Shown here: piece after piece, positions 1,193-34,166 of the stretch | Numbering within the stretch: the stretch's first letter is position 1 | Layout of the letters: every line of letters starts with the position of its first letter | Assembly: GCA_020536535.1 (NCBI GenBank) | Contig: JAHLWZ010000004.1 | Coordinates: 404,884 to 457,672, forward strand | DNA: 52,789 nucleotides | Direction: 5' to 3' | Origin: Pelomyxa schiedti | Lineage: Eukaryota; Protista; Evosea | Notes under the pieces: model-generated | Seen by the model: only the letters and a program-made list of their open reading frames with translations | Databases searched by the model: none | Told to the model about the DNA's origin: nothing | Made by a program: the position numbers and the translations under genes

Positions 1193-2226
1193 TTAAGACT
1201 TCTTTTTCCCTTTGCCTCTTCCTGCTCCTTTTCCTGTCGAGGCTTTCGCTCCCGGTTTTGCACTTGGATTGGGTGCTGTGGTCTCTGCCGACGGTGGTAC
1301 CGACGCCGATTGCTGTTGTTGCTGGTGCTGCTGATGTTGTAAATGCTTCTGGCGCAGTTTTTCAGCGGCGGCCTGGCTGCTGTGCTGTGCCGCGGGGTGG
1401 TGTGCCTGGGCTGGAGCAGCGGCGGGCTCGGCTGGGGTTACTTTGGCCACTGGGAGCTCGGTTTGCTTGGGGAAAGGGCACCGCATGGCAAAGGCATCTT
1501 CTTGATCGGCATAATAATGCTCCTCAACATCATGAACCCTTTTGAGGGAAAAAAAAAGTTAAACGAAGGGTAACATTTAACGAAAACTGGTACGCACTTG
1601 TAGCCTAGAGTGTCCTTGTATAAAGCCAAAGCAGCACGGTTGCCTCTCCTAACATGAAGGGACACATAGTGCGCTCCAAAAGAGTCTATCATGCATTGAT
1701 CTGGAAAAGCCATTGGTAAGGTGGTTTTGTGGGTAAGTCAAGATACGGGATTGTCTTAGCAATTTGGTTGCTATTCCGAGCTTTCTGTATGACCTCAAAA
1801 CTGATATGGACGTAATGTGCCCGTGTGGTTCTTCAGCTTCCTCCTCCCTAAAAACGAAATAGGTTAAACAAAACAAGTTTTAGGGCATATTGTTAAGAGG
1901 GTTTTAACTTATTAAGTGGTTATTGTCGTTTTGCTTGTTTTGTATGGTTTTAAAGCGGAACGGATCAATACATTTTTGCAAGTACGTAACCCACGATGCG
2001 ACCGTGGTCGTTTACGGCCACGAACGACAATTGCGGCCAAGACATAAGATGGTAGTAGTAATACTTCATCTGGTAGTTCTCGGGCAAACACGTCAAGTTG
2101 CAGTTCTGCATCCCGGGCAGATCGTCCACCTACGAGGTATGAGATTTATGAGCGATTCATTGCGACTGTTGTTGTTGTCGCAGATTATGATTCCCGGCGC
2201 ACCGTGGCTCGTCTAATCGACACCAT
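1193..2226 (-). CDS. NAA10: N-alpha-acetyltransferase catalytic subunit (NatA Naa10/ARD1-like). Exons 2226-2203, 2129-1972, 1857-1747, 1700-1598, 1538-1193.
   Basis: Spliced product reads MVSIRRAT|[27 protein letters not shown]...IVGYVLAKM|[30 protein letters not shown]...[26 protein letters not shown]|[19 protein letters not shown], then a Q/K-rich tail. This is collinear with Naa10 (MNIRCARPDDL...[12 protein letters not shown]...HGHITSLAV...YVSLHVRKSNRAALHLY...). Donors are gtgcgc/gtattg/gtatct/gtgcgt, all acceptors end AG, TAA stop at 1193-1195. Confidence 0.85.
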
Positions 2227-2368
2227 TTCCCGTTGATTTCGTCGGATATTTTTTTTTTTTGTTTAATTTTTCCCTTTTTTTTTTTCAAATCTGCTGAGCA
2301 CTTGCTCTCTTGCCAAGGGCTTTGTTTGTAACCTCAAAGGAGCGAAACTATGTTGGTGTCCATCATGA

Positions 2369-5300
2369 TCACGACAGTAGGAAGCACCCGGGGAGATACG
2401 AGAGGCCTGTAGGGGGAAGCTTCTCTGTGGGAGCACCCGAGACGGAGGCCAGCCACCACAGAGTGTGCTGAAGAACCGGGTGCAGAATCCCGGCAGAGTT
2501 CAGCCTGCCCACGCACTCCTGTACAACCACAAGTAGCGGCGCGGAGTCCTCCGGGCCCGCGCACTTGAGCAGCACCGGCGCCGTGAGCACGCTGTAGACT
2601 GCGCCGAACACCTCCTGCTCGAACGTGAGCCACTGCGGCCATATGCTGGTGGTGATTGTAGTCTGCAGCCACGCGGTCATGGTTGTGAGCCGCTCTATGA
2701 CCTTGGCTAGGTGCGGAGTGACGAGGGTCTTGAGCTCTTGCTTGATTGCGTTGTGCTGCTGCTGCTGTTGTTGCTGCTCTGGTGTAAATTGGGTGATGGT
2801 GAGAAGAGACTGCAGAGAAAGCTGAACGAGTAGAGCTTCCTCGGAGAAGAAGTTGTCTGGTTCTACCTCGAACAGCCGTTGTGCGTTGTTGTATGGGCTG
2901 TCGAACAGCGGTGTGTTTGATGCTGAGAGGCAGATGTTGTTCACAAGGTACGCCAGCCACTGGTGCTGCGCACTTGATGGATTTTCTGGTGAAGTGGGCG
3001 GTACGTTCAGGCACCAGTTTGTTAACGCACTGAAAAGTTTTTCAGTGGCAACTGGGGGACAAAGAGGAGTGTGCCCAAGGGAACTGGCTATAATTCTGGC
3101 CATGTGGGATCTTACTTCATAGTCATCATCTTGGAGAAGTGTTATGGCTACTTGTGCCAGTGACATTATGGTGCAAGGATCTGTTTCCAATATGAATCAC
3201 TCAAAAGCAAAAGAAATGTCATACCACTATGGTCGAAATGGCATAAAGCACTGGGTACAAAAATAGTTTCAAGTGCAGAAACTATACTACTTCTACGCGG
3301 GATGGGGCAAGCGGGTTGCGAGTCAGATTGAACCAGCTCCAAAAAGAAGGTGAGATTTTCATTTTCAGACACGCCTACACAAAAGGTAAGTACTTTTGAA
3401 TAATAAATACAAAACCTACTGTGATGACATCCTAGAAAGCCTTTTACAACGTGTCCCATCAATACGACAATAGACGGCCTTAAAGCCTGCTCCTTTAAAG
3501 CCAAAGCCTTCAAGAAAGAAAACAGATCATTTCTATTCACCACATCTGTCTTGACGATACTTCCGAGAGCATACATTACTCTTTTCAAGCATTTCAAATG
3601 TGGCTCCTTTCAATGGTGAGAAGACGCAGCAAATAAAAATCTTACATGGAAAACCATCGAATACAACAGTCGAGCAACTTCCAGGTCCTTGGGTGTACTC
3701 AAGCTGGGCCAGTAATGATGCTTACAAATGAAATTCAGACACACAGCTCGGACATCGTAGCTTGTGTGTTGTAGGAAATACAATAGCATATCAACAAGAG
3801 TTTTTCCAGATGTAGAAATGTCTATTAAGAAATATAAATTGCTTGCAAGGTAAACTGTGGAAGAAAACCTGGCCAGTCAGAAGTGATGTGCAGTGAGAAA
3901 GTGGTGGCAGCCTTTTGATGTGAACAAAGCATCACAGACGAACCAACATATTTTGAATTTGGCTGAATTGTGGCGGCAGAGTATGCTATTTCTGCTGCAA
4001 AGACCAGGAAATCATGTAGTCCACCATTCAAGGGAGAGATTTTTTTAAGGTGACAGCAAATCATGTCAGTCAACCTCAGCATTGCTGTGCTGATAGGGAA
4101 ACAATAATGTGAGTCGGAGTTTCCTCCACATCTGGCAAGCCACATTTTTGGTGTCAGTAAACCGAGAACTTGGCTCAAAAATTCCTAATTTAAAGATTAA
4201 ATCTATAGTAGTATAACAGGCGCCACTCACTTGGTTGGAAGCCTGGTCAAGGGAATGTTGCAGTAATGCATGTATTTGAAGAATTACTCCGTGAGTGCAG
4301 TTATGAGAGTGGCCAGATGCTATCTCATCGGGCAGACACTGTATCAGTTGGGTCAGCATGGAGGGTAGTGACACAGGGTTCACGAGTGGAACAATGGCGG
4401 CACTTGCAACTTCTCTCACTCTGGAAGGAAAGAAACTCAGGTTGAATAAAAAAAAGGATGAACTCCTTACTTCATGTAAGGGTGTGCTGAACACTTCAAA
4501 ACCATCTGAATGAATGGCAGTGGATCTTTGGTTGTTACTGTGGTGTCATAGGGCTGCAACTTGGATAGAAGAAGTAAGAGAGAGAACATGCTGGGCTGCA
4601 GAAGTTCTGAAGAAACACCATCCGACAACTTATGGATAAAACCAAGGAAATAGTCATATCTGACAAAACATTAGTGAGTTGGTTGGACGAGGAAAGTAAA
4701 GTACAGCAATGGATAAAGCGAGAAAATTTCATTGAAGGACACAACTCCAACGCCTCGGTTCAAGGCAGACTCAAACAGCATTGTGACTGAGTTACGAATG
4801 GCCCAGTTGGGTGACGCAAAGCATTCAAAAATGATTATAAAGATCCTGTCCAAGAATGAACTGACATCTGTGCATTTCCTTTAAAAAAAGAAAGTGGACC
4901 CTTGTTGCACACAATCAGAAACGGATTTTACACGCAGTAAGAATGTAAGCATGTTGATAGCGTGAACTTGAGCAGTCTGAACGCTTTCAGAGGTTTCACT
5001 GGGATTTGCTAGCTGCAACACTTCCGGAAAGTAACATAACTGGAGTCAAGTTTTTGTTTGTATGGAGAAAAGGTGTACATTGTTCAATAGTCATATTCAA
5101 TAGGTAATTAACAGCACCCTTTTCTGCTGCCTCAGCTTGAAGTACTCCTGCAATACAGAACGGCATCCCAGCACTACGCCTGGTTATGTGTTGCGTCTGC
5201 GGTGAACCCAGAGATGTGAGTACGTTCCTAATCCAACTTTCTGGAAGTAGACGTAGTTCTGGTGAGGTGCTGTGAAGTAACTTATCACACAAGATTTTGT

Positions 5301-8300
5301 ATCCTTCAGCCGTTTTTTCAATTGCCCCCTTGTGACGAGTTGATAAAAGAACATCTGCACAAGAAAAGAATTGTATTAGTGCTTAGAAGAATCAGTGTGT
5401 AAAGTGACAATACTGAGAAGAAGTTCGCCCAGTTGCTTCACCTGACTTACTGTGAGAAGTTCCTCAGATGTTTTACACGTTATGAGGGACACCAAAGCAC
5501 CAACGAGAAGGCTGGTCTCCTTGACACATAACCAGCAACAGACTGTAACGAGTTGACCCTCCTCACTTCTTAAATCTGGCGAGTGCTCGTGATTTTCGGT
5601 ACTTAATACATCGGGGTCATATCCCTCAGGTGCTAGATCTGCAACCACAGGCAATACTATTGCGGAAACCTTGTGTATGCATTCGCACAGATCAGACAGC
5701 AACGTCCGCAAAAGTGCACGTTCCTGGCTCGTGGAAGGAGCGTAAAAATGCGTGGTATCAACAATGTGGCGAAGAGCAGCCAGAAGGCCATGCATCGGAG
5801 CCTGACGAGCAGCAGCTATCAGGTTGCTAGAGGCAAGTGCCATTTGTGATTTCAATGCTTTAATAAGTTGGCTGGAGAAAGCTACTGCACTGATTGGAAG
5901 GGCCTGGGGGGCTGTCAAACTGGTGACAGAAATATGCCACTGTGAGTTCTCATCCACAGTAAGCTGAACGTCCCAGCTGCTCCCTTTGTTTATGTCACTT
6001 ACTAATAAGAGGAAAAAACGGCGAAAAAAAACCTGATATCAATTTGGTAAGAACAATGCAGAGGAGGCGGGCACCAGTGTCAGCCTGGAACATTCGAGGA
6101 CTGCGAATAAGGTGGACAGCCCACTGAAGCATAAGTTTAACTCCTTCAATGGATCCAAAACCGGGAAGTGGCTGAGGGAAAGATTGCAGAATACCAAAAA
6201 TCGCCAATCTGCATCTTTCCACTGGCGTACACAGAGCTCCCAATAGTAATGTGGCTTTTGCGGGTGTGTAAAGCTTTGGGTTTTGAGTAATTTTTATCTA
6301 TACAGTCAAGGTAACCTCAAAGAACTTGTTTTTGAAATCAGGTGGGAATGATTTCACAAGAATAGATAGTGACACTAAAGCAAATAGCATCCTTTCACGG
6401 CAAGCATTTGGATACAAGGTTGCAACAGAGGCATCAGCAAGCCAATTGGAAAATGCTCTGACCTGAGAATAAATTTGTTACAATATTGCCTGGGGGGAAA
6501 GAAGCAACCTGCTGCTCAACAGGAGACAGGGTATTTGTGGCTGCACGCACCCTATTTATGAATTTAGGAAGCAACCCAGCTATTTTTTGCCTCGAGTTTT
6601 GTGTTGTATGAGCAGAGCCAAGAAGCATGAAAGTGCGCATTAGTTGAAGCTGCATTCCAACAGTAATGTGAGTTTTTCGTTGATACGAAGGCTAAAACCT
6701 CAGCTACTGTCGGTGCTTCCAGTGATTTAGTGGATACTGTGATGAGCTCAAGCGCAGATAAACTGACAGCCTCCTCAGTGTGAGACAGACATTCACTTAA
6801 AAGAGAATCAAATGAGAAGGGGGTTTGAGCTTGCACTAAAGTCTACAATTGAGGAAGGGTGAACGAAATTGTGATGCAAGGTGCAGGCATACCTGTAATG
6901 AAGCAGAGTCTACCAAATCACTACTGCGTGCATATGTAAGGACAGAAATCAGGGTTTGAACAATTGCTTCATGGGGAGCTCCAGAAATGGAAATAGCGTG
7001 AACAATGTTTGGGATAGACTGGGGCATATGACGCAGAATTACAGGAAGGCTGTGTTCGGCCACGCGTGTAAAAGATTCATCCCCTTTGCCTGCTAAGCTT
7101 AAGAGTGTACTCACAAGAGGTGAAATTATTTGGCCTTCACAGAACTGTCTATCATGCATCTTTTTAAGGAGTTAAATTGCATTGAATGGTATTGTGGTAT
7201 TGATGATGAACCTTGGCCATTTTCTCCATGAAACTATCCAAAAAAAGGGAAGCTTGGAGACGGACTGTGAATACTCCCAGGGAAACAAGGGTTGTTTTTA
7301 CTATGTGAGGGCACATTTGTAGCATTTGTGTTGGCGTGATGTCACTCAACAAAGTTCTCTGCATTCCAGTTAAAAAAAAAACGGAAAAAATATGGCAAAC
7401 CAGAGGTGAGTATTTGGCTCGGTGCTCTCCAGAGAGATTCAGAATCTTCTGTACTAAGGACAGGACAAACTGGGGAACACCTTGTGCGTGAGGGAATATA
7501 GTACGATGCAGGTCCATGAGTATTGTGAAGTTCTGCTGGGACTGCTGAAGCACATTGGCAGCGGGGGTGTTCCAATGACGCCAAAGAATGTCTTTAGGGG
7601 AGTAAATTTGGAACACAATTGTGGAAGCCTGTACCAAGGGTGTCAACAAAAACAGTTTTGAAGAAAGCATCCCAGGAGACAAGAAATTTATTTCCTATTT
7701 CCTGGATAGAGATAAGCTGCTTAACTTCGAGAAAAATAGATACAGATAGGTCTGAGATTCCCGATATAACTTTCTGTAATCTGACAAGACATGCTTGTAG
7801 TGTCATAAGTGCAAAAAATGCATGAAACTGCACAGACACAGATTTACAGACACGTAGAGCAACAGGAAGAACCTAATATTATGGTGAAATATTTGTGGTA
7901 AAAAGTGTGTTACTTACGTAATCATACAGGAGAGTGCCAGATCTCCTTTCTCCTTCAAGGAGAGGAATTTGCAAAGTGAGATAATCCTCAGTCACGGGGG
8001 GAACAAGCACAACACCACGAATGATACTCATAAGTGGTAAGACACCAGCAGGTGAATGTAAAACAGTAATAGACTCAGTAGAAACAACCGGCAAACAGCT
8101 GACTCCCGCAGTGCCTGCTGATTGCTCCATCGAGGTTATTTTTACTGGTGTAAGAACCCGCTGAATCAGCATTGCCACACTTTTTGCACTTCCGCATAGG
8201 CACAATATTTGTGCAATAGCCATCCCTGATGAGGAGAGACATGATTTAGAACACCACTTTTGCAGGCATATTTGTATTAAAGCTTGCAAAAGCTCCTTAG

Positions 8301-9213
8301 GGCCTTTTTTGTCATCTAGAGATTTTGTAGTATTTGAACCATTGAAAACACTGCTAAAAAAATTGCCCACTGCAGAAGGAAGTCGCGAGCATGTCAGAAC
8401 AAATGTCTTGATAACCAAATCACACTCGTTGACAGCAATTTCAGTAACTACTTCATTAATGTGCTCAAGCTGCTGCAGTTTACTCAAATGAAGCGCCAGA
8501 GTTGTCGCAAATGCTGAAGTGATAAGCTCGACCATCGAGGGATGAGAAAGGTGGGGAATTGCCACAGTTGCATCTAGCAACTGCGAAATCAGAGTTAGCA
8601 CAGCAGAGCAGTGCTCAACGCGAGCCTCTGCGCCACTGCAAATCCCGGCCAGCTCACTCTTAAACCACGCGAACAGCCTTTCAGCCTGCCGCGAAGCCAC
8701 CTGAGTGCTCACGGCATTGAACAGGGAAGCGCACCCCGCTCTCAACTGCGTGTGCTGCTCACCCGAGTGCATCAGATACTCACAAGCAACATCGCACGCG
8801 AGCTCGGCGCTCTGACAGACCTCGAAATTGGCACTTTCGAGAGCGGCTGCGCTCGCCGCGTCTTTTCCGGCGTCGCTCAGCGCCGACGCCATCTTGCTCA
8901 GGGCCACAAACTGCGCCTTTCCATTACCGCCGGATGCGATCAACTGCGCCAGCAACGCGCCCACGTCTACTGGCCTTTTCTTGCCTTTGGTTTGCTGTTG
9001 CGACTGCGGATCTTGCGTGTCCGGTACTTGAGCGGCTGCGGCGGCGGTGTCGCAGTTAGATCTGTGGGCGAGTACGACGCGCTTGTATTCTTCGAAAGCG
9101 GACGTGAGCCTGGCGATGACGTCACGGGGCAGATCTAGTGGCAAATCGCCCTTCTTGGTGTCGCGAACCCTCTGTTGTTGTTTGTGCTGGTCGCGGTCCG
9201 CTCGGTACGCCAT
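2369..9213 (-). CDS. THADA: Very large multi-exon gene (more than 10 exons). Probable THADA/Trm732-family (DUF2428, ARM/HEAT-like) tRNA 2'-O-methylation partner protein.
   Basis: A chain of minus-strand ORFs spans about 6.8 kb: 9258-7879 (459 aa first exon, likely start MAYRADRD near 9213), 7682-7164, 7159-6836, 5957-5376, 5292-4996, 4494-4066, 3597-3166 and 3190-2369. Exon 5292-4996 carries ITRRSAGMPFCIAGVLQ, matching the conserved RRSAGLP(F) motif I recall from the THADA/Trm732 DUF2428 family. The rest is helical low-complexity sequence typical of ARM/HEAT proteins. Exon junctions were not resolved. Confidence 0.5.
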
Positions 9214-9544
9214 GGTGAAAAAAAAAAGAGTCGGTGATGGTTCACGGAAAACGGGCACCCGTTTCTTTTTTTTTGAAACGCATCACACTCAGTCAATAAT
9301 GATGGTTGCTTGTGGAATACGCTGTTGTGGTGTTTGAGGTGGTTGAGGGTGAGGCGCAGGAGCCGGGAGGGCGCCGCGCGCAACGTCAGGCATCTCGGGA
9401 ATGCGGTTTGCTTCCTCCTCCGCCTTATTCTTTTTCAGCAAGGCTTCAAAGCAGTGAAAAAGCTGAGCTTCCCTTTCTTCAATCTTCTCCTTTGGCGCCT
9501 TTGGATTGCTGGTGAGCCAGGTGAGTATTTCGTCACACGTTTGC

Positions 9545-11341
9545 TTAGTCTGGATACAAGTTAGGGAAAACTAAACAAAAGTGGATGCTCACCTGGTGCA
9601 CGTTTTCCTCAAGACGGGCCTGTGCCCTATGGCGCCTTTTTTCCGCTTCCCTTCTGAGGTGGTATGCTTCCTGTTTCATGGCCGCAATTTGCTCTCGTGT
9701 GAGTCCAATCCTCAAGTCATTCAGGGCGACCTTTCTGCTCGTATCACTCTCCGCAGTTACATCCACCATACCATATCTGTCACAATTGAAGGTCACAAGC
9801 ACCAGCTTTTCCCCATCTCTATTTGTGGGCAGCAGAGGCAGTTTAAACTCACCCAGACAGATACCCCTGCCTTGAATCACCCTGATTGTTACACTCGCAC
9901 TCCTGTTGCTGGTGTAGATATGACCCACAATCCTGAATGGAAACCCCTTGTTCTTTGGCACAATGACTTTCACTTTGGTGTCTGGTTTCTCGACACCAAG
10001 GCTGTGAGGAGTTACGTCAAGCAGCAGAATATCGTTAAGACAAGGGCTGGACTTGGCGGCGCCGGAGAGAATAGCAGCCTGCACAGCTGCACCATGTGCC
10101 GCGGCCTCCTCCCAATTACGGATATTGTTCGGCTGTAATCTGTGATCGAAAAGCTCTGAGACCAACTTCTGTATCATGGGGATCTGGGCGGATCCGCCAA
10201 CCATGATGACCTCACAAATGCTTATCTTAGAAACCGGTGGATCTTGAGATTGCAGTACTTGATCAATTAGGCCCACAGTTGATCTGAAAAACTGCTTGTT
10301 GACTTGCTCAAAAAAAGAGCGAGTAATCTTGCCCAAGTAGTTGATGCCAGCCAATAAGTCATTAATTTCCACAATGGCCTCTTCTTTCTCAGAAAGTGTT
10401 ATCTTGGCCCGCTCACAGGCAGTGCGAAGCATTCCCAGAGCTCTAGAATCACAATGCAGGTCCTTGTTGAATGTGGTCCTGAAGTCAGTTGCAAAGTGCT
10501 CCACCAAATTATGGTCGAGCTCCTCTCCACCAAGATGTGTGTTTCCAGCAGTCGCCAAGACATGAAGTACTCCTCCATTCGCAAGAAGTAGAGTGACATT
10601 CACTGTACCACCTCCAATATCGAAAACAACGATGTGGCCATCTTTTCGGTATCCCATAGCCACTGCAGTCGATTCATCTATGAGCCTAACTGGATGGAGA
10701 CCTGCGATTACCGCCGCGTCCCGAGTGGCTTTTCTCTGTACTTCGTTGAAATCCGCTGGGCACCTGTTGGGAGATATGCGGGATGAGAAGGATAAAGAGA
10801 AGCACAGGGACACAAACGTGATAACTGCCTGGTTGAACGACTTTCCCAAGTAGGATTCGGCAATATCCTTCATCTTTGCAAGGACCAGTGACAAAATTTC
10901 TTCTGGCGTGATCAACTTGATAATACCACAGTCTCTCACTTGAATAAGTGGGAGCCCAGAGTTGTCAACGATCTTGAACGGCCAGTTCCTCATGTCAGCC
11001 TGAAGGTTAGCATCCCCTGTCTTCCTCCCAATGATCCTCTTGATATCAAAAATGGTGCACTCTCGATTTCGCTCAATCTGCGCCACTGCCGCCTCCCCAA
11101 CGAGCGGCCCTCGGTCTGTGAACGCCACGCAAGTTGGAGTGGAGATGTTCCCCAGCTCGTTTGGCAGTACCTTCACCACACCACCCCTCCACACTGCGAC
11201 GCGACAATACGTAGTACCAAAGTCTATTCCAACACCGATGGGCTCCTCTGCAGCAGATGTTACCGGTAACGCCACGAACGAGGAACCTGTGGTTGTTCCC
11301 GCAGATCCCAATGCAGATGGAGGTACTGATGTCGCCGACAT
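9545..11341 (-). CDS. Hsp70-family chaperone, divergent cytosolic-type, with one 54-nt intron at 10764-10817
   Basis: Continuous 635-aa ORF with IDFGTTYCRVAV, DIGGGT, IKRIIGRK and the usual NBD/SBD collinearity (about 45% identity to Hsc70 by eye). The stretch AVIT[fvslcfslsfssrispnrc]PADFNEVQRKAT holds a gtttgt...caacag intron that happens to be in frame. There is an S/T-rich N-terminal extension; the likely start is MSATSVPPS at 11341. No C-terminal EEVD. Confidence 0.85.
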   Translation of the reverse strand: MSATSVPPSALGSAGTTTGSSFVALPVTSAAEEPIGVGIDFGTTYCRVAVWRGGVVKVLPNELGNISTPTCVAFTDRGPLVGEAAVAQIERNRECTIFDIKRIIGRKTGDANLQADMRNWPFKIVDNSGLPLIQVRDCGIIKLITPEEILSLVLAKMKDIAESYLGKSFNQAVITFVSLCFSLSFSSRISPNRCPADFNEVQRKATRDAAVIAGLHPVRLIDESTAVAMGYRKDGHIVVFDIGGGTVNVTLLLANGGVLHVLATAGNTHLGGEELDHNLVEHFATDFRTTFNKDLHCDSRALGMLRTACERAKITLSEKEEAIVEINDLLAGINYLGKITRSFFEQVNKQFFRSTVGLIDQVLQSQDPPVSKISICEVIMVGGSAQIPMIQKLVSELFDHRLQPNNIRNWEEAAAHGAAVQAAILSGAAKSSPCLNDILLLDVTPHSLGVEKPDTKVKVIVPKNKGFPFRIVGHIYTSNRSASVTIRVIQGRGICLGEFKLPLLPTNRDGEKLVLVTFNCDRYGMVDVTAESDTSRKVALNDLRIGLTREQIAAMKQEAYHLRREAEKRRHRAQARLEENVHQVSIHFCLVFPNLYPD

Positions 11342-11888
11342 GTTATTGTGCTTGTTGTTGGATCTCGCCCTGAGCGTTTGTGTTGTTATTTTTTTTGTGG
11401 TTATGAAATTATCCAGGTGATGAAGCCAAAAAAAGATCGACGCCTGTGGCACCCAGAATCATTTTGGTGGGCCATAGACGCCGTAGAAAGATGAAAGAAA
11501 AGAGGAATTGGGATTTTAGGTGCTTAGTTTTCAGACACGATTTAATTAACGTCAATACGCCACATAGATCTTGGGAAAAAGGGGTTTTCAGGAATGGACG
11601 CAGGGGATATGTCAAAGGGCTGACGTAATGACAGGTGTGACAAACGGGCTTAGATTTTCTATCCAAATATTTTTAGCTCGCCACAATTGGGTCAATTTGA
11701 AAAAAAAAACTGGAGGAAACAACAAACGGGAAACGGTTCCCGTTTTCTTGTTTTTTGGGATTTTTTTCTTTTTTGTTTGCCAGTTGAGTGTGTTTAGAAT
11801 ACTGCAAAACTGATTGTCATATGTAGTTTACATGGGCTCCACCATATTTATCGTAATGTATAGTTGTACAGTTGTCATAATCCCCCAG

Positions 11889-29952: not shown

Positions 29953-30031
<79 letters not shown>

Positions 30032-30126: not shown

Positions 30127-30572
30127 TTTTTTTTTCTTGAAACCCTCTAAATTTTTTATCCCTTTTCCTTTGAAAAGCGAAAAGTTTTCTGGTTCGAACT
30201 GAGGGTTGATCTCAAGAGAAAAAAAATTCCCTTGTTGCCTGGTCTACAGCCTCCAATTGGTGAGAAACACAATTAGTCTCAATTTTTGCAGTGTGATTGT
30301 TTGTAGTTCTCCATTAGGTACGCCAAAGTGTGTAGGTACGTGCCTGTTGTCTGGGGTGTTTTTACAAGGGATACTGATACTGAAACTGAGTTTCAATTTG
30401 GGGCTGAAAAATCAGGAAAACCCTTGGTGGAAACACAAAGAGTGATACCCTATATCTTGTGTAATGTGTTCTAAGCTTCCGGTTAATCAATGAATATCCA
30501 CTCACAAAATTGTTACAGGAAATGCAATGTGAGCAACACTAGAACCATCAAAATAGTTCATTACTTCCATTT

Positions 30573-31895
30573 CTATTCAGTGGATTGGCACAACAATATA
30601 TACACCGATGTGCTGCAGGGGGGGAAAAAAATTACTCCAAGCACATGACAGTAGTGAAACACACCGCATGCAAATTCTTTATCATAGCTGCCAATTTCCA
30701 TGGATTTACTGCAATGACAGGCGTCTCTGCATTTGGTTGGGTAATGGGTAGAGATTAAGAGGGGAACCTCCTCCAGGGGTCATGATCTGTGTGTGTAAGA
30801 AGAGGAAGTCCGCGTGCTTTCAAAACTGCATTGACCTGGTTTCCATCCACACAGCTGGGGAATTTCAGTGTTTGAAGTTCAAAGGATGAAAAACCTTCCA
30901 GGGGTCAAACCACTGTGCCCAAGAACCTCTGGCATGCGACATGGGTGAAGAGTGAGCTGAATAACTGTTAAAATAACCAAGTAAGAGAAGTCATACTCCG
31001 TGTGTGGCAGCAATTCCAATTAGGTTATCGAGGATTCTTTCTTTTTCTATTAGGGGTGGATCAATGAGTTCTATTCCTGCTTGTGCCATCTGTTTTTTTG
31101 GTTAGTGTGATCTTATATGAAATCGTTTTTACCCTTGGTACAACTGTCTTGTAGGGGATGCAGAATGCAAATGTAATCTTTTTCAGCCCGAGTTTCCCTC
31201 CAGCTTCACATATCTAGTGTGAACTATAAGTATGATTTTAAAAATGTTGGAGAGTACCTGCGAGAAATGAGACAAGTTATCATAAACGGTATCGTCCCCA
31301 TGATTCTTATAGAAAACGATGGGATCAAACCGCAGTGATACACTGCTTGCATTTTAATTTCTCTTGGCATTCAGCGATTCACATAACCTTTCGGGTCCAA
31401 ACAATCTAACAAGTTGAGATAGCTGTTCAAGCCTCTCAGGAAAAGTGCAACGCAATCCCGGTTCCAATATGGAGGGGCTATTCAGAGTAAAGTTGAAGCA
31501 GTGAGCATCATATTGAGCAAGCAAGTTGTGAGTGACTGGATCGTTGAAGCACTGCAACCACTTGGAAAAATCCTTTGACCACCTTTGTTATACCTTGTCA
31601 ATAACAAATTGTGGGTGGGCATCAGGATATGTTATGAATACCACACGAAAGCCCGAACAAATGGGGGTCTGAGTGTCACGGTGGGAGGTGAATACCTCGA
31701 CCTGGTCACAAACCCCTCTTTGATCCTCTCCAAGACCCAGTCCATATAGAACCTGTTTTCATTAAAGGAATTAAGACACAACCAACCCGACTCAATGCAT
31801 TGTGGGATGAAAAATAGGAGCACTAACGCTGGGATGTCAGTCCTTCTTGAGCACGAGATCACTTCCCACGTCTCTTCGGGTTGTTGTGCCATCAC
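30573..31895 (-). CDS. DUF1848-family protein (bacterial/archaeal-type) interrupted by at least 4 spliceosomal introns
   Basis: Spliced product reads MAQQPEETWEVISCSRRTDIPA|FYMDWVLERIKEGFVTRSRYSPPTVTL...AQYDAHCFNFTLNSPSILEPGLRCTFPERLEQLSQLVRLFGPE|..RFDPIVF...|..SCVDGNQVNAVL..|..CRDACHCSKSMEIGSYDKEFACGVFHYCH... This matches the DUF1848 pattern as I recall it (M.IIS.SRRTDIPAFY.EWF.NRIKEGFV ... YYFQFTLT.Y..D.EP..P....R...F..L....G.E.V.WRYDPI ... C.C..S.DIG.Y..C.HGC.YC). Introns include gttagt...aaacag (75 nt) and gttatg...gcaag (42 nt). Confidence 0.65.
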
Positions 31896-32183: not shown

Positions 32184-34166
32184 ATGCCTGTAACAAAACA
32201 CCACTCCCGCAACAAGAGAAAGAAAACACCAAACCCTAAAAAACCAAACAAAACAGGCCGTCCCACCTTGCCCCACAACACAAACGCCCCAACAAACACA
32301 ACAACCAAGGACGGCACAGCCACCAGCCAAACCCATAATAAGAAGAAAAAAGTACCCACACCGGCCGTATCCCCCACACTTGGAATCTTGTGTTGCCCAA
32401 CCACGCCTTCGCTACTTTGTTGTGGAATGTTCGGCGGCAGTGCTCAGCCGTCTCCCATAATCCCGAACCGCCTGTACCTCGGCGACGAATTACACGGCTG
32501 CTCGCGGCGCACTTTGAGGCTGTGCGGAGTGACTCGCGTGTTGTCTGTTGGCGAGCGCGCGTTCGAGCTTCCCGGCGTGTTGTTGATGCACCACGCAATG
32601 AGCGATTATGGGAGGTCAAACCTCACGAGGCTGCTGCCGTCTTTTTTCAGATTCATCGACGAATCTCTGGCTAGAAACCAATGCCAAATTGATGATACAT
32701 GCACAAATACCAATCCAAATCCAAATCCAATCACAAACACCAATTCCAACAGCAACAACAATGACCCAACCCAACTTTTTCTGGGAAAGGTTGCTTCTCC
32801 ATTGAACCGTTCCCCTGTAACATCACCAATAACATCCCCTTCCCAGTCTCCTGCGCTTATGTCTGTTATGTACAACCAGCCAACTTACACACTGTCACCT
32901 CACTCTGCTTCCCCTCAGCGCTCCACATGTGCTTCTTCTTCTGGTGCTGTACTGGTACATTGTGCTGCCGGAGCAAACAGGTCTCCGGTTGTGGTTATAG
33001 CATACCTCATAGCAAGATGCGGGCTAACTTTAGCCGAGGCCGCCACCCATGTGAAGTCTCTTAGACCCCAAACTCATCCTTGTATATCTTATATGGAGCA
33101 GCTTCTTACGCTGGAATATGAATGCTTCGGCTCTAACTCCTGGAAGTTAAGCGAATTTGCAATGGCCATGCAAGGAAAACCTTCTGTGCAGACCATTCAA
33201 CTTACTGCCGTTAATGACACGGTGGTTGTATCCCAGATGCCCACTTCTCCAAAACCCTCACCAAAGGCACAACCTTCCCCAAAAGGGCAGCCTTCTCCAA
33301 AAGCGCCACCATCCCAAATGGCACCGCCCAAACTAGTGCCACCACCACTTACCACCCAATATGTAAATCTAACAAATCCAACAGTTACATCAACCCACTT
33401 GCAGGGAACACCCGTTACTCTTCCGCCATTCAATCCAATACCCTCCTCACACTCAAATCCAACACTTTTTCCACCTTCGAAACAAAACGCACTGCCCTCT
33501 GACAAGCCTGCCGAAAGACAATATACTCCATTCACAATTGCCGCGATAGCACTTGCCACCGCGCTAGGCCCAGCGGCTACCGGAACAAGGAAAGTAGTTC
33601 CGCAAAAAGAAGCACCTCCCGGTCCGAAGCTGCCGCCGATTCCTCCTAAGCACAAGGATGACATTTTGATGGTTACACCCATTCCTGCAACCCAAAGCAC
33701 AAACACCAACTCCAACTCTAACATCAGCATCAGCACCAGCACCAAAATCACAACAGACCCAATAAAGAACCTCTCCCCACTACCCCCGCAAGCACCTCTC
33801 ACAAATACAACCACCAATATGCCGACATTAATGACAAACAAAACAGCCATCACAGGAATCAATTTCTACAAGACACCCAAGGAGAAACAGACACTTCCAC
33901 CCTTGGTTAACAAAAAGCATTCGCCAAGCTCACTCCCCAACAAAACCCCACACAAGCCAGTCACATCACTCTCCCCATCATTGTCATATCCCGGTGGATC
34001 CAGCAACACTTCTGGGAACACTGGGTGTAATGCAAAGTGGGATTGGACCAGCTGTGGTGTACATTACTCCAAGCAGCCAATACCACACACAGGCCACCAA
34101 TTTAGCTTCTGCAGAGAGCTCCCCACACTGCCCAATAGTTGTGTGGGTGCAGGGCTCTCTATGTGA
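32184..34166 (+). CDS. Dual-specificity protein phosphatase (DUSP/MKP-like) with long low-complexity P/S/T/N-rich regions. The functional start is probably the ATG near 32430.
   Basis: Single 660-aa ORF. PNRLYLGDE...GVTRVLSV...VLVHCAAGANRSPVVVIAYLIARCGLTLAEAATHVKSLRP matches the DUSP fold and the HCxxGxxRS catalytic loop. It contains (CCAAAT)n and PSPK repeats. Confidence 0.8.
   Translation: MPVTKHHSRNKRKKTPNPKKPNKTGRPTLPHNTNAPTNTTTKDGTATSQTHNKKKKVPTPAVSPTLGILCCPTTPSLLCCGMFGGSAQPSPIIPNRLYLGDELHGCSRRTLRLCGVTRVLSVGERAFELPGVLLMHHAMSDYGRSNLTRLLPSFFRFIDESLARNQCQIDDTCTNTNPNPNPITNTNSNSNNNDPTQLFLGKVASPLNRSPVTSPITSPSQSPALMSVMYNQPTYTLSPHSASPQRSTCASSSGAVLVHCAAGANRSPVVVIAYLIARCGLTLAEAATHVKSLRPQTHPCISYMEQLLTLEYECFGSNSWKLSEFAMAMQGKPSVQTIQLTAVNDTVVVSQMPTSPKPSPKAQPSPKGQPSPKAPPSQMAPPKLVPPPLTTQYVNLTNPTVTSTHLQGTPVTLPPFNPIPSSHSNPTLFPPSKQNALPSDKPAERQYTPFTIAAIALATALGPAATGTRKVVPQKEAPPGPKLPPIPPKHKDDILMVTPIPATQSTNTNSNSNISISTSTKITTDPIKNLSPLPPQAPLTNTTTNMPTLMTNKTAITGINFYKTPKEKQTLPPLVNKKHSPSSLPNKTPHKPVTSLSPSLSYPGGSSNTSGNTGCNAKWDWTSCGVHYSKQPIPHTGHQFSFCRELPTLPNSCVGAGLSM

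Follow-up and report, generated by a model that had tools for sequence, protein, structure and literature searches.

A DUF1848 gene of Pelomyxa schiedti with its nearest relatives in giant viruses and its nearest cellular relatives in Asgard archaea

The stretch of DNA analyzed here (the window; 52,789 nt of the forward strand of contig JAHLWZ010000004.1 of Pelomyxa schiedti, assembly GCA_020536535.1, positions 404,884 to 457,672) carries on its minus strand a gene of the protein family DUF1848 (Pfam PF08902). Judged from its sequence, it is an intact nuclear gene of P. schiedti, adapted to its host, and it appears to be neither vertically inherited nor of bacterial type. The closest relatives of the gene are found in giant viruses (Nucleocytoviricota) and, next to these, in Asgard archaea. 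We consider it probable that an old transfer linked to giant viruses brought the gene into the Pelomyxa lineage, where it was then domesticated, and that its product is an oxygen-sensitive iron–sulfur (Fe-S) enzyme.

The product (P0001, 301 residues) clearly belongs to PF08902, and GenBank already lists it as a "DUF1848 family protein." The match to Pfam covers the full profile (positions 1-262 of 262) with 168.2 bits (E 4e-49; cut-off 30.5), and a rough concatenation of the unspliced pieces already reaches 130.6 bits. In NCBIfam, the protein has no match. A first-pass annotation of the window had recognized a DUF1848 gene at this place, in a eukaryotic locus and with the N-terminal and central conserved blocks of the family, and in these respects it was right. 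It had also taken the gene for a bacterial-type one. At JGI, DUF1848 proteins sometimes bear the label "DNA repair photolyase."

Among about 1,600 database homologs, the only named eukaryotic proteins are P0001 and a second Pelomyxa paralog, P0002 (411 residues, 57% identical to P0001), whose gene is on a contig of 98.8 kb. In a search of GTDB in which a single genome stood for each prokaryotic species, the top 20 loci include 19 from Asgard archaea (Promethearchaeota, Thorarchaeota, and Hodarchaeota; Helarchaeota follow at rank 21) or from unclassified archaea grouping with these (36-41% identity, E 1e-70 to 1e-55). Bacterial loci (Desulfobacterales, Acetivibrio, Calditrichota, and others) follow at E 1e-46 or weaker, an order that contradicts a bacterial type. 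The sole non-archaeal locus among the best 20 (rank 19) lies on a contig, L019 (JARLHW010000164.1, 12,269 bp), labeled as a metagenome-assembled genome (MAG) of Desulfosporosinus, and it pairs with Pelomyxa at 93% bootstrap. Desulfosporosinus as the sister of Pelomyxa was rejected: the open reading frames (ORFs) of that contig are not bacterial, and it is a misbinned giant-virus contig. In IMG/VR, three of the best four full-length matches lie on GVMAG contigs and one on a viral contig of 117 kb (34-43% identity; 42-43% for the top two, both GVMAG). Three of these four contigs are identical to, or contain, members of the viral clade described below (P0009, P0012, P0080). The JGI metagenome collection and a database of 5.8 billion proteins contained no relative above ~42-44% identity; all matches there are contiguous, and no intron-fragmented (eukaryotic) homolog was found among them.

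Trees were built by neighbor joining (NJ) with bootstraps, all unnamed database matches being added to the named sequences. The two Pelomyxa paralogs pair at 100% and fall inside a clade of ~60 environmental sequences (76-83% over the NJ trees), where their immediate sister is a viral subclade of 10 sequences (62-81%). This clade of viruses and Pelomyxa is sister to a clade of 60 Asgard sequences, and both together are set against bacteria at 90-91%. Of 200 bootstraps, 185 give Pelomyxa a sister group in which verified viral contigs are present and Asgard and bacterial sequences are absent; across data sets, the sister group is purely viral in 92-96% of replicates. With a balanced L-INS-i set and gamma-corrected distances, Pelomyxa joins the viral subclade at 78-81% and the viral sequences as a whole at 79-80%. 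A grouping of Pelomyxa with Asgard archaea that leaves out the viral sequences occurs in 0 of 200 and 0 of 300 bootstraps.

The same order is obtained with subfamily hidden Markov models (HMMs), built without Pelomyxa and used to score its two paralogs (PELO1 and PELO2):

Viral sister subclade: PELO1 332 bits, PELO2 360 bits
Other viral sequences: PELO1 303 bits, PELO2 334 bits
Asgard archaea: PELO1 287 bits, PELO2 306 bits
Bacteria: PELO1 233 bits, PELO2 257 bits

Derived characters are shared as well. An insertion of two residues, together with the motif DPxTxxLLxQYDAH, is present in Pelomyxa, in P0037, P0021, and P0028, and more loosely in P0055. Pelomyxa and viral sequences further share an insertion ahead of KDxGQR and the motif FAFC, where Asgard archaea have FSFA. 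The NJ trees, the subfamily HMM scores, and the shared indels and motifs thus agree on an affinity between Pelomyxa and the viral sequences. The Asgard proteins (from MAGs of Promethearchaeota/Lokiarchaeia, Thor-, Hod-, and Helarchaeota) are the closest cellular homologs; unlike the Pelomyxa gene, theirs lacks both insertions and has a conserved isomerase neighbor.

Each contig of the viral clade that was inspected carries dense, intronless, ORFan-rich genes of Nucleocytoviricota type. The DUF1848 genes on such contigs (e.g., GVMAG-S-3300002702-22 and GVMAG-M-3300014204-73; L081, L139, L141, L019) are up to 42-44% identical to the Pelomyxa gene and have in common with it the indels and motifs, FAFC included, and the top subfamily HMM score. 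They differ from it in being intronless, in lying amid viral replication, repair, and ORFan genes, and, in many cases, in having an N-terminal extension. On the 307-kb contig of P0071 (L081), DUF1848 adjoins PolB, and genes for HSP70, DnaJ, RNase HII, ankyrin, RING, UCH, and 2C_adapt are also present. On the contig of P0086 (L139), it adjoins RecQ, and there is a fused mRNA-capping enzyme. Contig L141 (Ga0078972_1000326, 199,313 bp), with DUF1848 at 7818-8924, carries the VLTF3 hallmark, PARP, and a fusion of NrdD with its activase. A viral context is also seen for P0055, P0028, P0021, P0006, P0057, P0037, and L087. The misbinned contig L019 (ORFs at 688-1974, 1930-3021, 5908-6903, and 6873-8027), whose DUF1848 belongs to the sister subclade of Pelomyxa, has genes for an EsV-1-7 Cys-motif protein, DUF7666, AAA ATPases, and poly-Pro proteins with N-terminal MG; a match to Pox_G9-A16 (poxvirus G9/A16 entry-fusion) lies just under the threshold (23.6 bits vs. 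a gathering threshold, GA, of 24). Contigs syntenic with L019 occur in several SRA runs (L222, L223).

The fusion protein on L141, encoded next to DUF1848 (8991-11675, minus strand), is an 895-residue class III anaerobic ribonucleotide reductase (NrdD, 577 bits) joined to a radical S-adenosylmethionine (SAM) activase. The fusion implies that this giant virus is adapted to anaerobic hosts, and some giant viruses of the DUF1848 clade seem equipped for such hosts. On the contigs of P0021 and P0037, the viral ones nearest to Pelomyxa, a DUF4326 gene directly follows DUF1848 (L084, 5472-7179; L221, 603-2119), a conserved microsynteny of two uncharacterized genes. On L095 (GVMAG-S-1041352-47, 60.8 kb), the DUF1848 match at ~7011-7872 is in pieces, the longest intact ORF having 147 codons, which suggests a frameshifted or decaying copy, or else an assembly error.

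No isolated and named virus is a source of these sequences, except for a fragment-like match in Pithovirus LCDPAC01, a named giant-virus MAG from deep-sea sediment. This 111-residue protein (A0A481YM45 in BFVD) aligns with only part of the DUF1848 model (88 columns at 31% identity, E 6e-5), perhaps as the product of a gene fragment. About 50 more IMG/VR viral contigs (L089-L137), not labeled GVMAG, bear a distant DUF1848 with 26-30% identity; many are 20-60 kb long and a few 340-390 kb. A DUF1848-like fold is also contained in a crAss-like phage protein of 1,278 residues (A0A7M1RU68, uncultured phage cr272_1; BFVD). DUF1848 is thus also widespread on phage-like elements.

The structure of the Pelomyxa gene was obtained by an exhaustive search of the window for GT/GC...AG splice combinations. 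The spliced window is identical to P0001 residue for residue, with 10 exons and nine introns on the minus strand, from 31892 down to a TGA stop codon at 30550-30548. The exons are as follows:

30548..31892, minus strand: whole coding sequence (CDS), 906 nt spliced including the stop, 301 residues; the spliced translation equals P0001
31828..31892, minus strand: exon 1, 65 nt, MAQQPEETWEVISCSRRTDIPA; holds the invariant S13, R16, R17, D19, and P21
31642..31752, minus strand: exon 2, 111 nt, FYMDWVLERIKEGFV...FVRAFVW; splice model equals P0001
31388..31582, minus strand: exon 3, 195 nt, WSKDF...DPVTHNLLAQYDAHCFNFTLNS...LEPG...GPE; holds the two-residue insertion and DPxTxxLLxQYDAH, common only to the viral sister subclade
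31258..31342, minus strand: exon 4, 85 nt, SVSLRFDPIVFYKNHGDDTVYDNLSHFSQ; holds the invariant R128, D130, P131, and N146
31133..31213, minus strand: exon 5, 81 nt, ICEAGGKLGLKKITFAFCIPYKTVVPR; FAFC is the viral-clade signature (FSFA in Asgard archaea)
30997..31089, minus strand: exon 6, 93 nt, MAQAGIELIDPPLIEKERILDNLIGIAATHG; splice model equals P0001
30895..30956, minus strand: exon 7, 62 nt, LTLHPCRMPEVLGHSGLTPG(S); holds the invariant C216
30768..30854, minus strand: exon 8, 87 nt, CVDGNQVNAVLKARGLPLLTHTDHDPWRR; holds the invariant C232 and the insertion ahead of KDxGQR, common to the viral sister subclade
30665..30726, minus strand: exon 9, 62 nt, DACHCSKSMEIGSYDKEFAC; holds the invariant C263, C265, and C280
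30548..30612, minus strand: exon 10, 65 nt, AHRCIYCCANPLNRNGSNELF*; holds the invariant C284 and C287 and finishes CX3CX2C

All introns are GT...AG, with lengths, from first to ninth, of 75, 59, 45, 44, 43, 40, 40, 41, and 52 nt and phases 2,2,2,0,0,0,2,2,1. The short GT-AG introns of the first-pass annotation (at least four, of 42-75 nt) are thus real, but they number nine and span 40-75 nt, and its gene span (30573-31895) left out the final 25 nt of the CDS. Without splicing, the pieces of DUF1848-like protein are spread over all three frames of the minus strand, and the longest ORF in the region has 87 codons. An early splice model that gave a frameshift in exon 2, as in a pseudogene, was discarded: its donor site was wrong, and the donor after FVRAFVW gives P0001 exactly. 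Since genes of P. schiedti have 7.43 introns on average, with GT-AG borders in 98.4% of all introns (PMC8887013), nine introns are ordinary for this organism.

The last intron (30664-30613) interrupts the C-terminal CX3CX2C motif between exons 9 and 10. The C terminus of P0001 reads C263-H-C265-SKSMEIGSYDKEFA-C280-AHR-C284-IY-C287, that is, CxC followed by CX3CX2C. The Cys-rich C-terminal block had been noticed before but was partly misread, because intron 9 splits it.

Over 117 aligned sequences including P0001, 22 residues are invariant, and P0001 keeps them all: the 15 residues S13, R16, R17, D19, P21, W60, S61, K62, T91, E99, R109, R128, D130, P131, and N146, and the seven cysteines C216, C232, C263, C265, C280, C284, and C287. 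At 63 columns conserved at ≥85%, P0001 deviates in four (G258W, Q259R, D270E, Y288C); as many deviations or more are seen in 27% of the remaining family members, so P0001 is within the range of the family. With the rest of PF08902 it has in common SxSRRTDIP, WSK, RFDP, the seven cysteines, the length, and the predicted fold. It is set apart by being encoded in an intron-rich eukaryotic nuclear gene, by the clade-specific insertions (in the DPxTxxLLxQYDAH region and ahead of KDxGQR), and by these four substitutions at highly conserved sites.

The gene lies on a 467-kb contig, and the GC content of its exons (46%) is close to the local average. At 421 nt downstream, on the same strand, is a gene for a Ras/Rho-family GTPase (30126-29119; Pfam Ras, 6e-46) with at least six introns (gaps of ~47-155 nt). 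In its first intron (~155 nt) is a homopolymer of 75 nt (29955-30029), which reads as A on the plus strand and as T on that of the gene. At 291 nt upstream, on the opposite strand and divergently transcribed, an ORF for a dual-specificity phosphatase (DSPc) extends over 32184-34166 (plus strand). It is 660 codons long and intronless, which is unusual for a genome with 7.4 introns per gene on average, and it has extended low-complexity Ser/Thr/Pro/Asn tracts. DSPc genes also occur at 3-4 kb from DUF1848 on the viral contigs L084 and L087. The Pelomyxa phosphatase matches a viral one (an L084 protein) only over the 55 residues of the catalytic loop, and a database search with the phosphatase domain gave no matches; a joint transfer of the phosphatase with the DUF1848 gene, conceivable from this arrangement, is unproven. 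When all ORFs of 10 viral contigs were compared with the window (tblastn), only the DUF1848 gene, a generic HSP70, and the 55-residue phosphatase loop were found. The DUF1848 gene thus does not sit in an endogenous viral island. The HSP70 gene (9593-11236, minus strand) is 37% identical to that of L081, a generic conservation with no sign of transfer.

The AlphaFold2 (AF2) model of the protein has a predicted local distance difference test (pLDDT) score of 93.7 and a predicted template modeling (pTM) score of 0.92. The predicted fold resembles the partial (beta/alpha)6 TIM-barrel core of solved radical-SAM enzymes. The motif C280-x3-C284-x2-C287, invariant in the 117 sequences, is the radical-SAM cluster signature, but it is C-terminal, a noncanonical position. 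Four more invariant cysteines (C216, C232, C263, C265) could hold a second or auxiliary cluster. Identity to radical-SAM enzymes (PFL-activating enzyme 3C8F/3CAN, spore photoproduct lyase 4FHC, RlmN, NifB, HemN) is 10-13%. In these enzymes, the cluster motif comes after strand beta-1, whereas DUF1848 has it at the extreme C terminus and has a conserved SRRTDIPAFY loop in that place; SAM-binding motifs were not identified in DUF1848.

With 11 DUF1848 members, neither Radical_SAM (PF04055) nor related models match at E ≤ 10, and a sequence-profile search of the PDB gave no match. In hhalign comparisons with six genuine radical-SAM proteins, only the 20-column Cys motif aligned, at a probability of 3%, with IGsY..C.H.C.YCYA of DUF1848 paired with the strand-plus-loop ILSITSNCNLKCAGCYA of the radical-SAM proteins. 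Sequence-level proof of radical-SAM homology was thus not obtained with PF04055, the PDB, or hhalign; the pairing hints at an arrangement in which the cluster motif would be permuted relative to radical-SAM enzymes. The gene occurs almost exclusively in anaerobes, which fits the oxygen-labile Fe-S enzyme proposed here. The guess of the first-pass annotation, a possible Fe-S or radical-type enzyme, fits the fold and the cysteine motifs. Such an Fe-S enzyme with radical chemistry is a tentative assignment, with a chance somewhat short of even. It would be an oxygen-sensitive, SAM-dependent radical enzyme with a [4Fe-4S] cluster, and it might repair or modify a pyrimidine in DNA or tRNA. The gene neighborhoods point to nucleic acid as the likely substrate, with less confidence than for the Fe-S chemistry itself.

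In giant viruses, DUF1848 is beside or near PolB, RecQ, PNKP (PNK-3′-phosphatase), Exo_endo_phos nucleases, and DNA ligase. At 22 bacterial loci, mostly of Desulfobacterales, a gene for tRNA dihydrouridine synthase (Dus, 295 bits) is directly downstream on the same strand (e.g., L077, 6934-7911), an arrangement that looks like an operon. Directly upstream of DUF1848, 16 bacterial loci (among L024-L080) have a conserved protein of ~111 residues without a Pfam match. At 18 Asgard loci, an isomerase of the IF-2B/MtnA type is nearby on the opposite strand. Isomerases of the MtnA type act in the salvage of SAM by-products; the link with DUF1848 may be functional, or it may be mere synteny among related genomes. 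The Asgard neighborhoods (L001-L020; e.g., L020, 2795-3814, and L005, 8380-9495) also have a PhzF-like protein and a SPASM-type radical-SAM protein.

A third context is that of reverse transcriptases (RTs). DUF1848 has been described as a partner of UG25 RT-methyltransferases (PMC9226505); this is the only substantive mention that our literature search returned, with no published function for the family and no mention of PF08902. PADLOC lists the family, as RTasDUF1848, among RT-associated candidate defense components (the UG25 RT/methylase accessory, in candidate defense-associated RT, or DRT, systems). The Pelomyxa protein matches that model (E 4e-32), which reflects family membership only. 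At the Pelomyxa locus, a UG25/DRT arrangement was not found: the adjacent genes are those of the GTPase and the phosphatase, no RT or methylase adjoins, and no RT was seen in the flanks.

The most parsimonious history would be a transfer, long ago, from a lineage of Nucleocytoviricota to the Pelomyxa lineage. Afterwards, the gene would have gained its nine introns, its base composition would have become host-like, and a duplication would have produced the two paralogs, which have since diverged to 57% identity. The first-pass annotation had proposed a prokaryotic gene that was then domesticated. To regard the gene as foreign and later domesticated is correct in outline, because the DUF1848 family is overwhelmingly non-eukaryotic, but the proximate source is most likely Nucleocytoviricota and not a prokaryote.

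Several points weigh against this history and the enzyme proposed with it. The phylogeny is distance-based only, key nodes have 62-81%, and the Pelomyxa branches are long. The context was checked for only ~15 of the ~60 members of the viral clade, the others being assumed viral. Because the nearest viral homolog is only 42-44% identical, the donor itself is unsampled. No further viral gene flanks the locus, so that the neighboring viral or hallmark genes by which a giant endogenous viral element (GEVE) is recognized are lacking. Intron-rich eukaryotic homologs are nearly invisible in metagenome protein catalogs, so the direction from eukaryote to virus is possible. On the side of function, the clues from context diverge between DNA repair, tRNA modification, and defense.

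A direct transfer from an Asgard archaeon of Lokiarchaeia type into the Pelomyxa lineage, giant viruses then taking their copies from Pelomyxa-like anaerobic hosts, is an unlikely alternative, although at first it looked the best. Asgard archaea are the closest cellular relatives, the clade of viruses and Pelomyxa is sister to, and possibly nested in, their diversity (the joint clade excludes L021 and L027), viruses frequently capture host genes, and intron-bearing eukaryotic homologs would be missed in metagenome catalogs. This alternative was displaced after the unnamed environmental sequences entered the tree and the contigs were inspected. Bootstraps never group Pelomyxa with Asgard archaea to the exclusion of the viruses, and Pelomyxa is nested in, not basal to, a viral clade of diverse genomes (GC from 22% to 55%; Imitervirales-like and ORFan-rich). 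With that nesting, the Asgard route needs many captures from host to virus or a wide spread from virus to virus, and only one eukaryotic species is known to have the gene.

The sister position of the Asgard clade (90-91%) would also be expected if the gene descended vertically from an Asgard-related ancestor of eukaryotes and was lost everywhere but in Pelomyxa and in giant viruses that had taken it up early. The full set of introns and the old duplication (57% identity) do indicate a long residence. Because intron density is high in all P. schiedti genes, the presence of introns is no sign that the gene goes back to the first eukaryotes. Losses would be needed in essentially every other eukaryotic lineage, with no other named eukaryote among the ~1,600 homologs, and Pelomyxa lies within, not outside, the viral sequences; we regard vertical inheritance as very improbable.

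A bacterial gene, transferred and domesticated as first annotated, has still less to recommend it and is scarcely credible. Bacteria (Desulfobacterales, Clostridia, Calditrichota) contribute most members of the family, and lateral gene transfer (LGT) from bacteria to Archamoebae is very common; in Mastigamoeba balamuthi, there are 528 LGT candidates (PMC8136499). Bacteria are, however, the most distant group by E-value, by HMM score (233/257 vs. 332/360 bits), and in the tree (90-91%), and the diagnostic indels and motifs are common to viral, not to bacterial, sequences. The homologs nearest to the Pelomyxa gene are Asgard ones within the genomes of prokaryotic species and giant-virus ones overall.

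That the gene is contaminating prokaryotic or viral DNA, or a decaying pseudogene, has a negligible probability: the assembly stems from single-cell data and needed decontamination (PMC8887013), and P0001 is substituted at four highly conserved positions, but contamination and decay are rejected because of the nine in-register GT-AG introns (each required to restore the frame), the eukaryotic genes within 300-420 nt on both sides on a long contig, the host-like exon GC, and the conservation of every invariant residue, with a count of deviations that is usual in the family.

Archamoebae are already known to have hundreds of foreign genes, and the horizontal transfer itself is solid but ordinary; it is the donor that is unusual. 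As with other LGT genes of Archamoebae (e.g., the NIF Fe-S assembly system), a foreign gene was fixed in an anaerobic amoebozoan, has host-type introns, and was later duplicated. For those genes, unlike for DUF1848, the reported donors are prokaryotic. New here are the affiliation of the gene, first with a giant-virus clade and second with Asgard archaea, and the view of DUF1848 as a possible radical-SAM-like enzyme with a C-terminal cluster motif. The recurring neighbors of DUF1848 offer functional leads: on viral contigs, genes of DNA replication and repair; at bacterial loci, tRNA dihydrouridine synthase; and in defense islands, the RT-methylase.

Our literature search found no giant virus, virus-derived gene, or Asgard-affiliated gene described for Archamoebae. 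As its nearest relatives are giant-viral, the Pelomyxa gene indirectly suggests that giant viruses of Archamoebae exist or once existed. A clade of viruses and an amoeba that is sister to Asgard archaea is an uncommon pattern, and it bears on the movement of genes among archaea, viruses, and eukaryotes in anoxic sediments. One may go further and imagine a hitherto unrecognized axis of gene flow in such sediments, linking Asgard archaea, giant viruses of anaerobic protists, and anaerobic amoebae. Diverse Nucleocytoviricota (some with a class III anaerobic ribonucleotide reductase) would have taken up the gene either directly from Asgard cells or, by way of early hosts, from the Asgard-related ancestor of eukaryotes, and would have passed it on to Pelomyxa, the product being a radical-SAM-like nucleic-acid enzyme with a circularly permuted cluster motif. 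As a whole, this wider picture is improbable. If it were true, the two Pelomyxa genes would provide the first sign, in any genome, of giant viruses infecting Archamoebae, and both that group of viruses and the DUF1848 enzyme could be studied in Pelomyxa as a cellular system.

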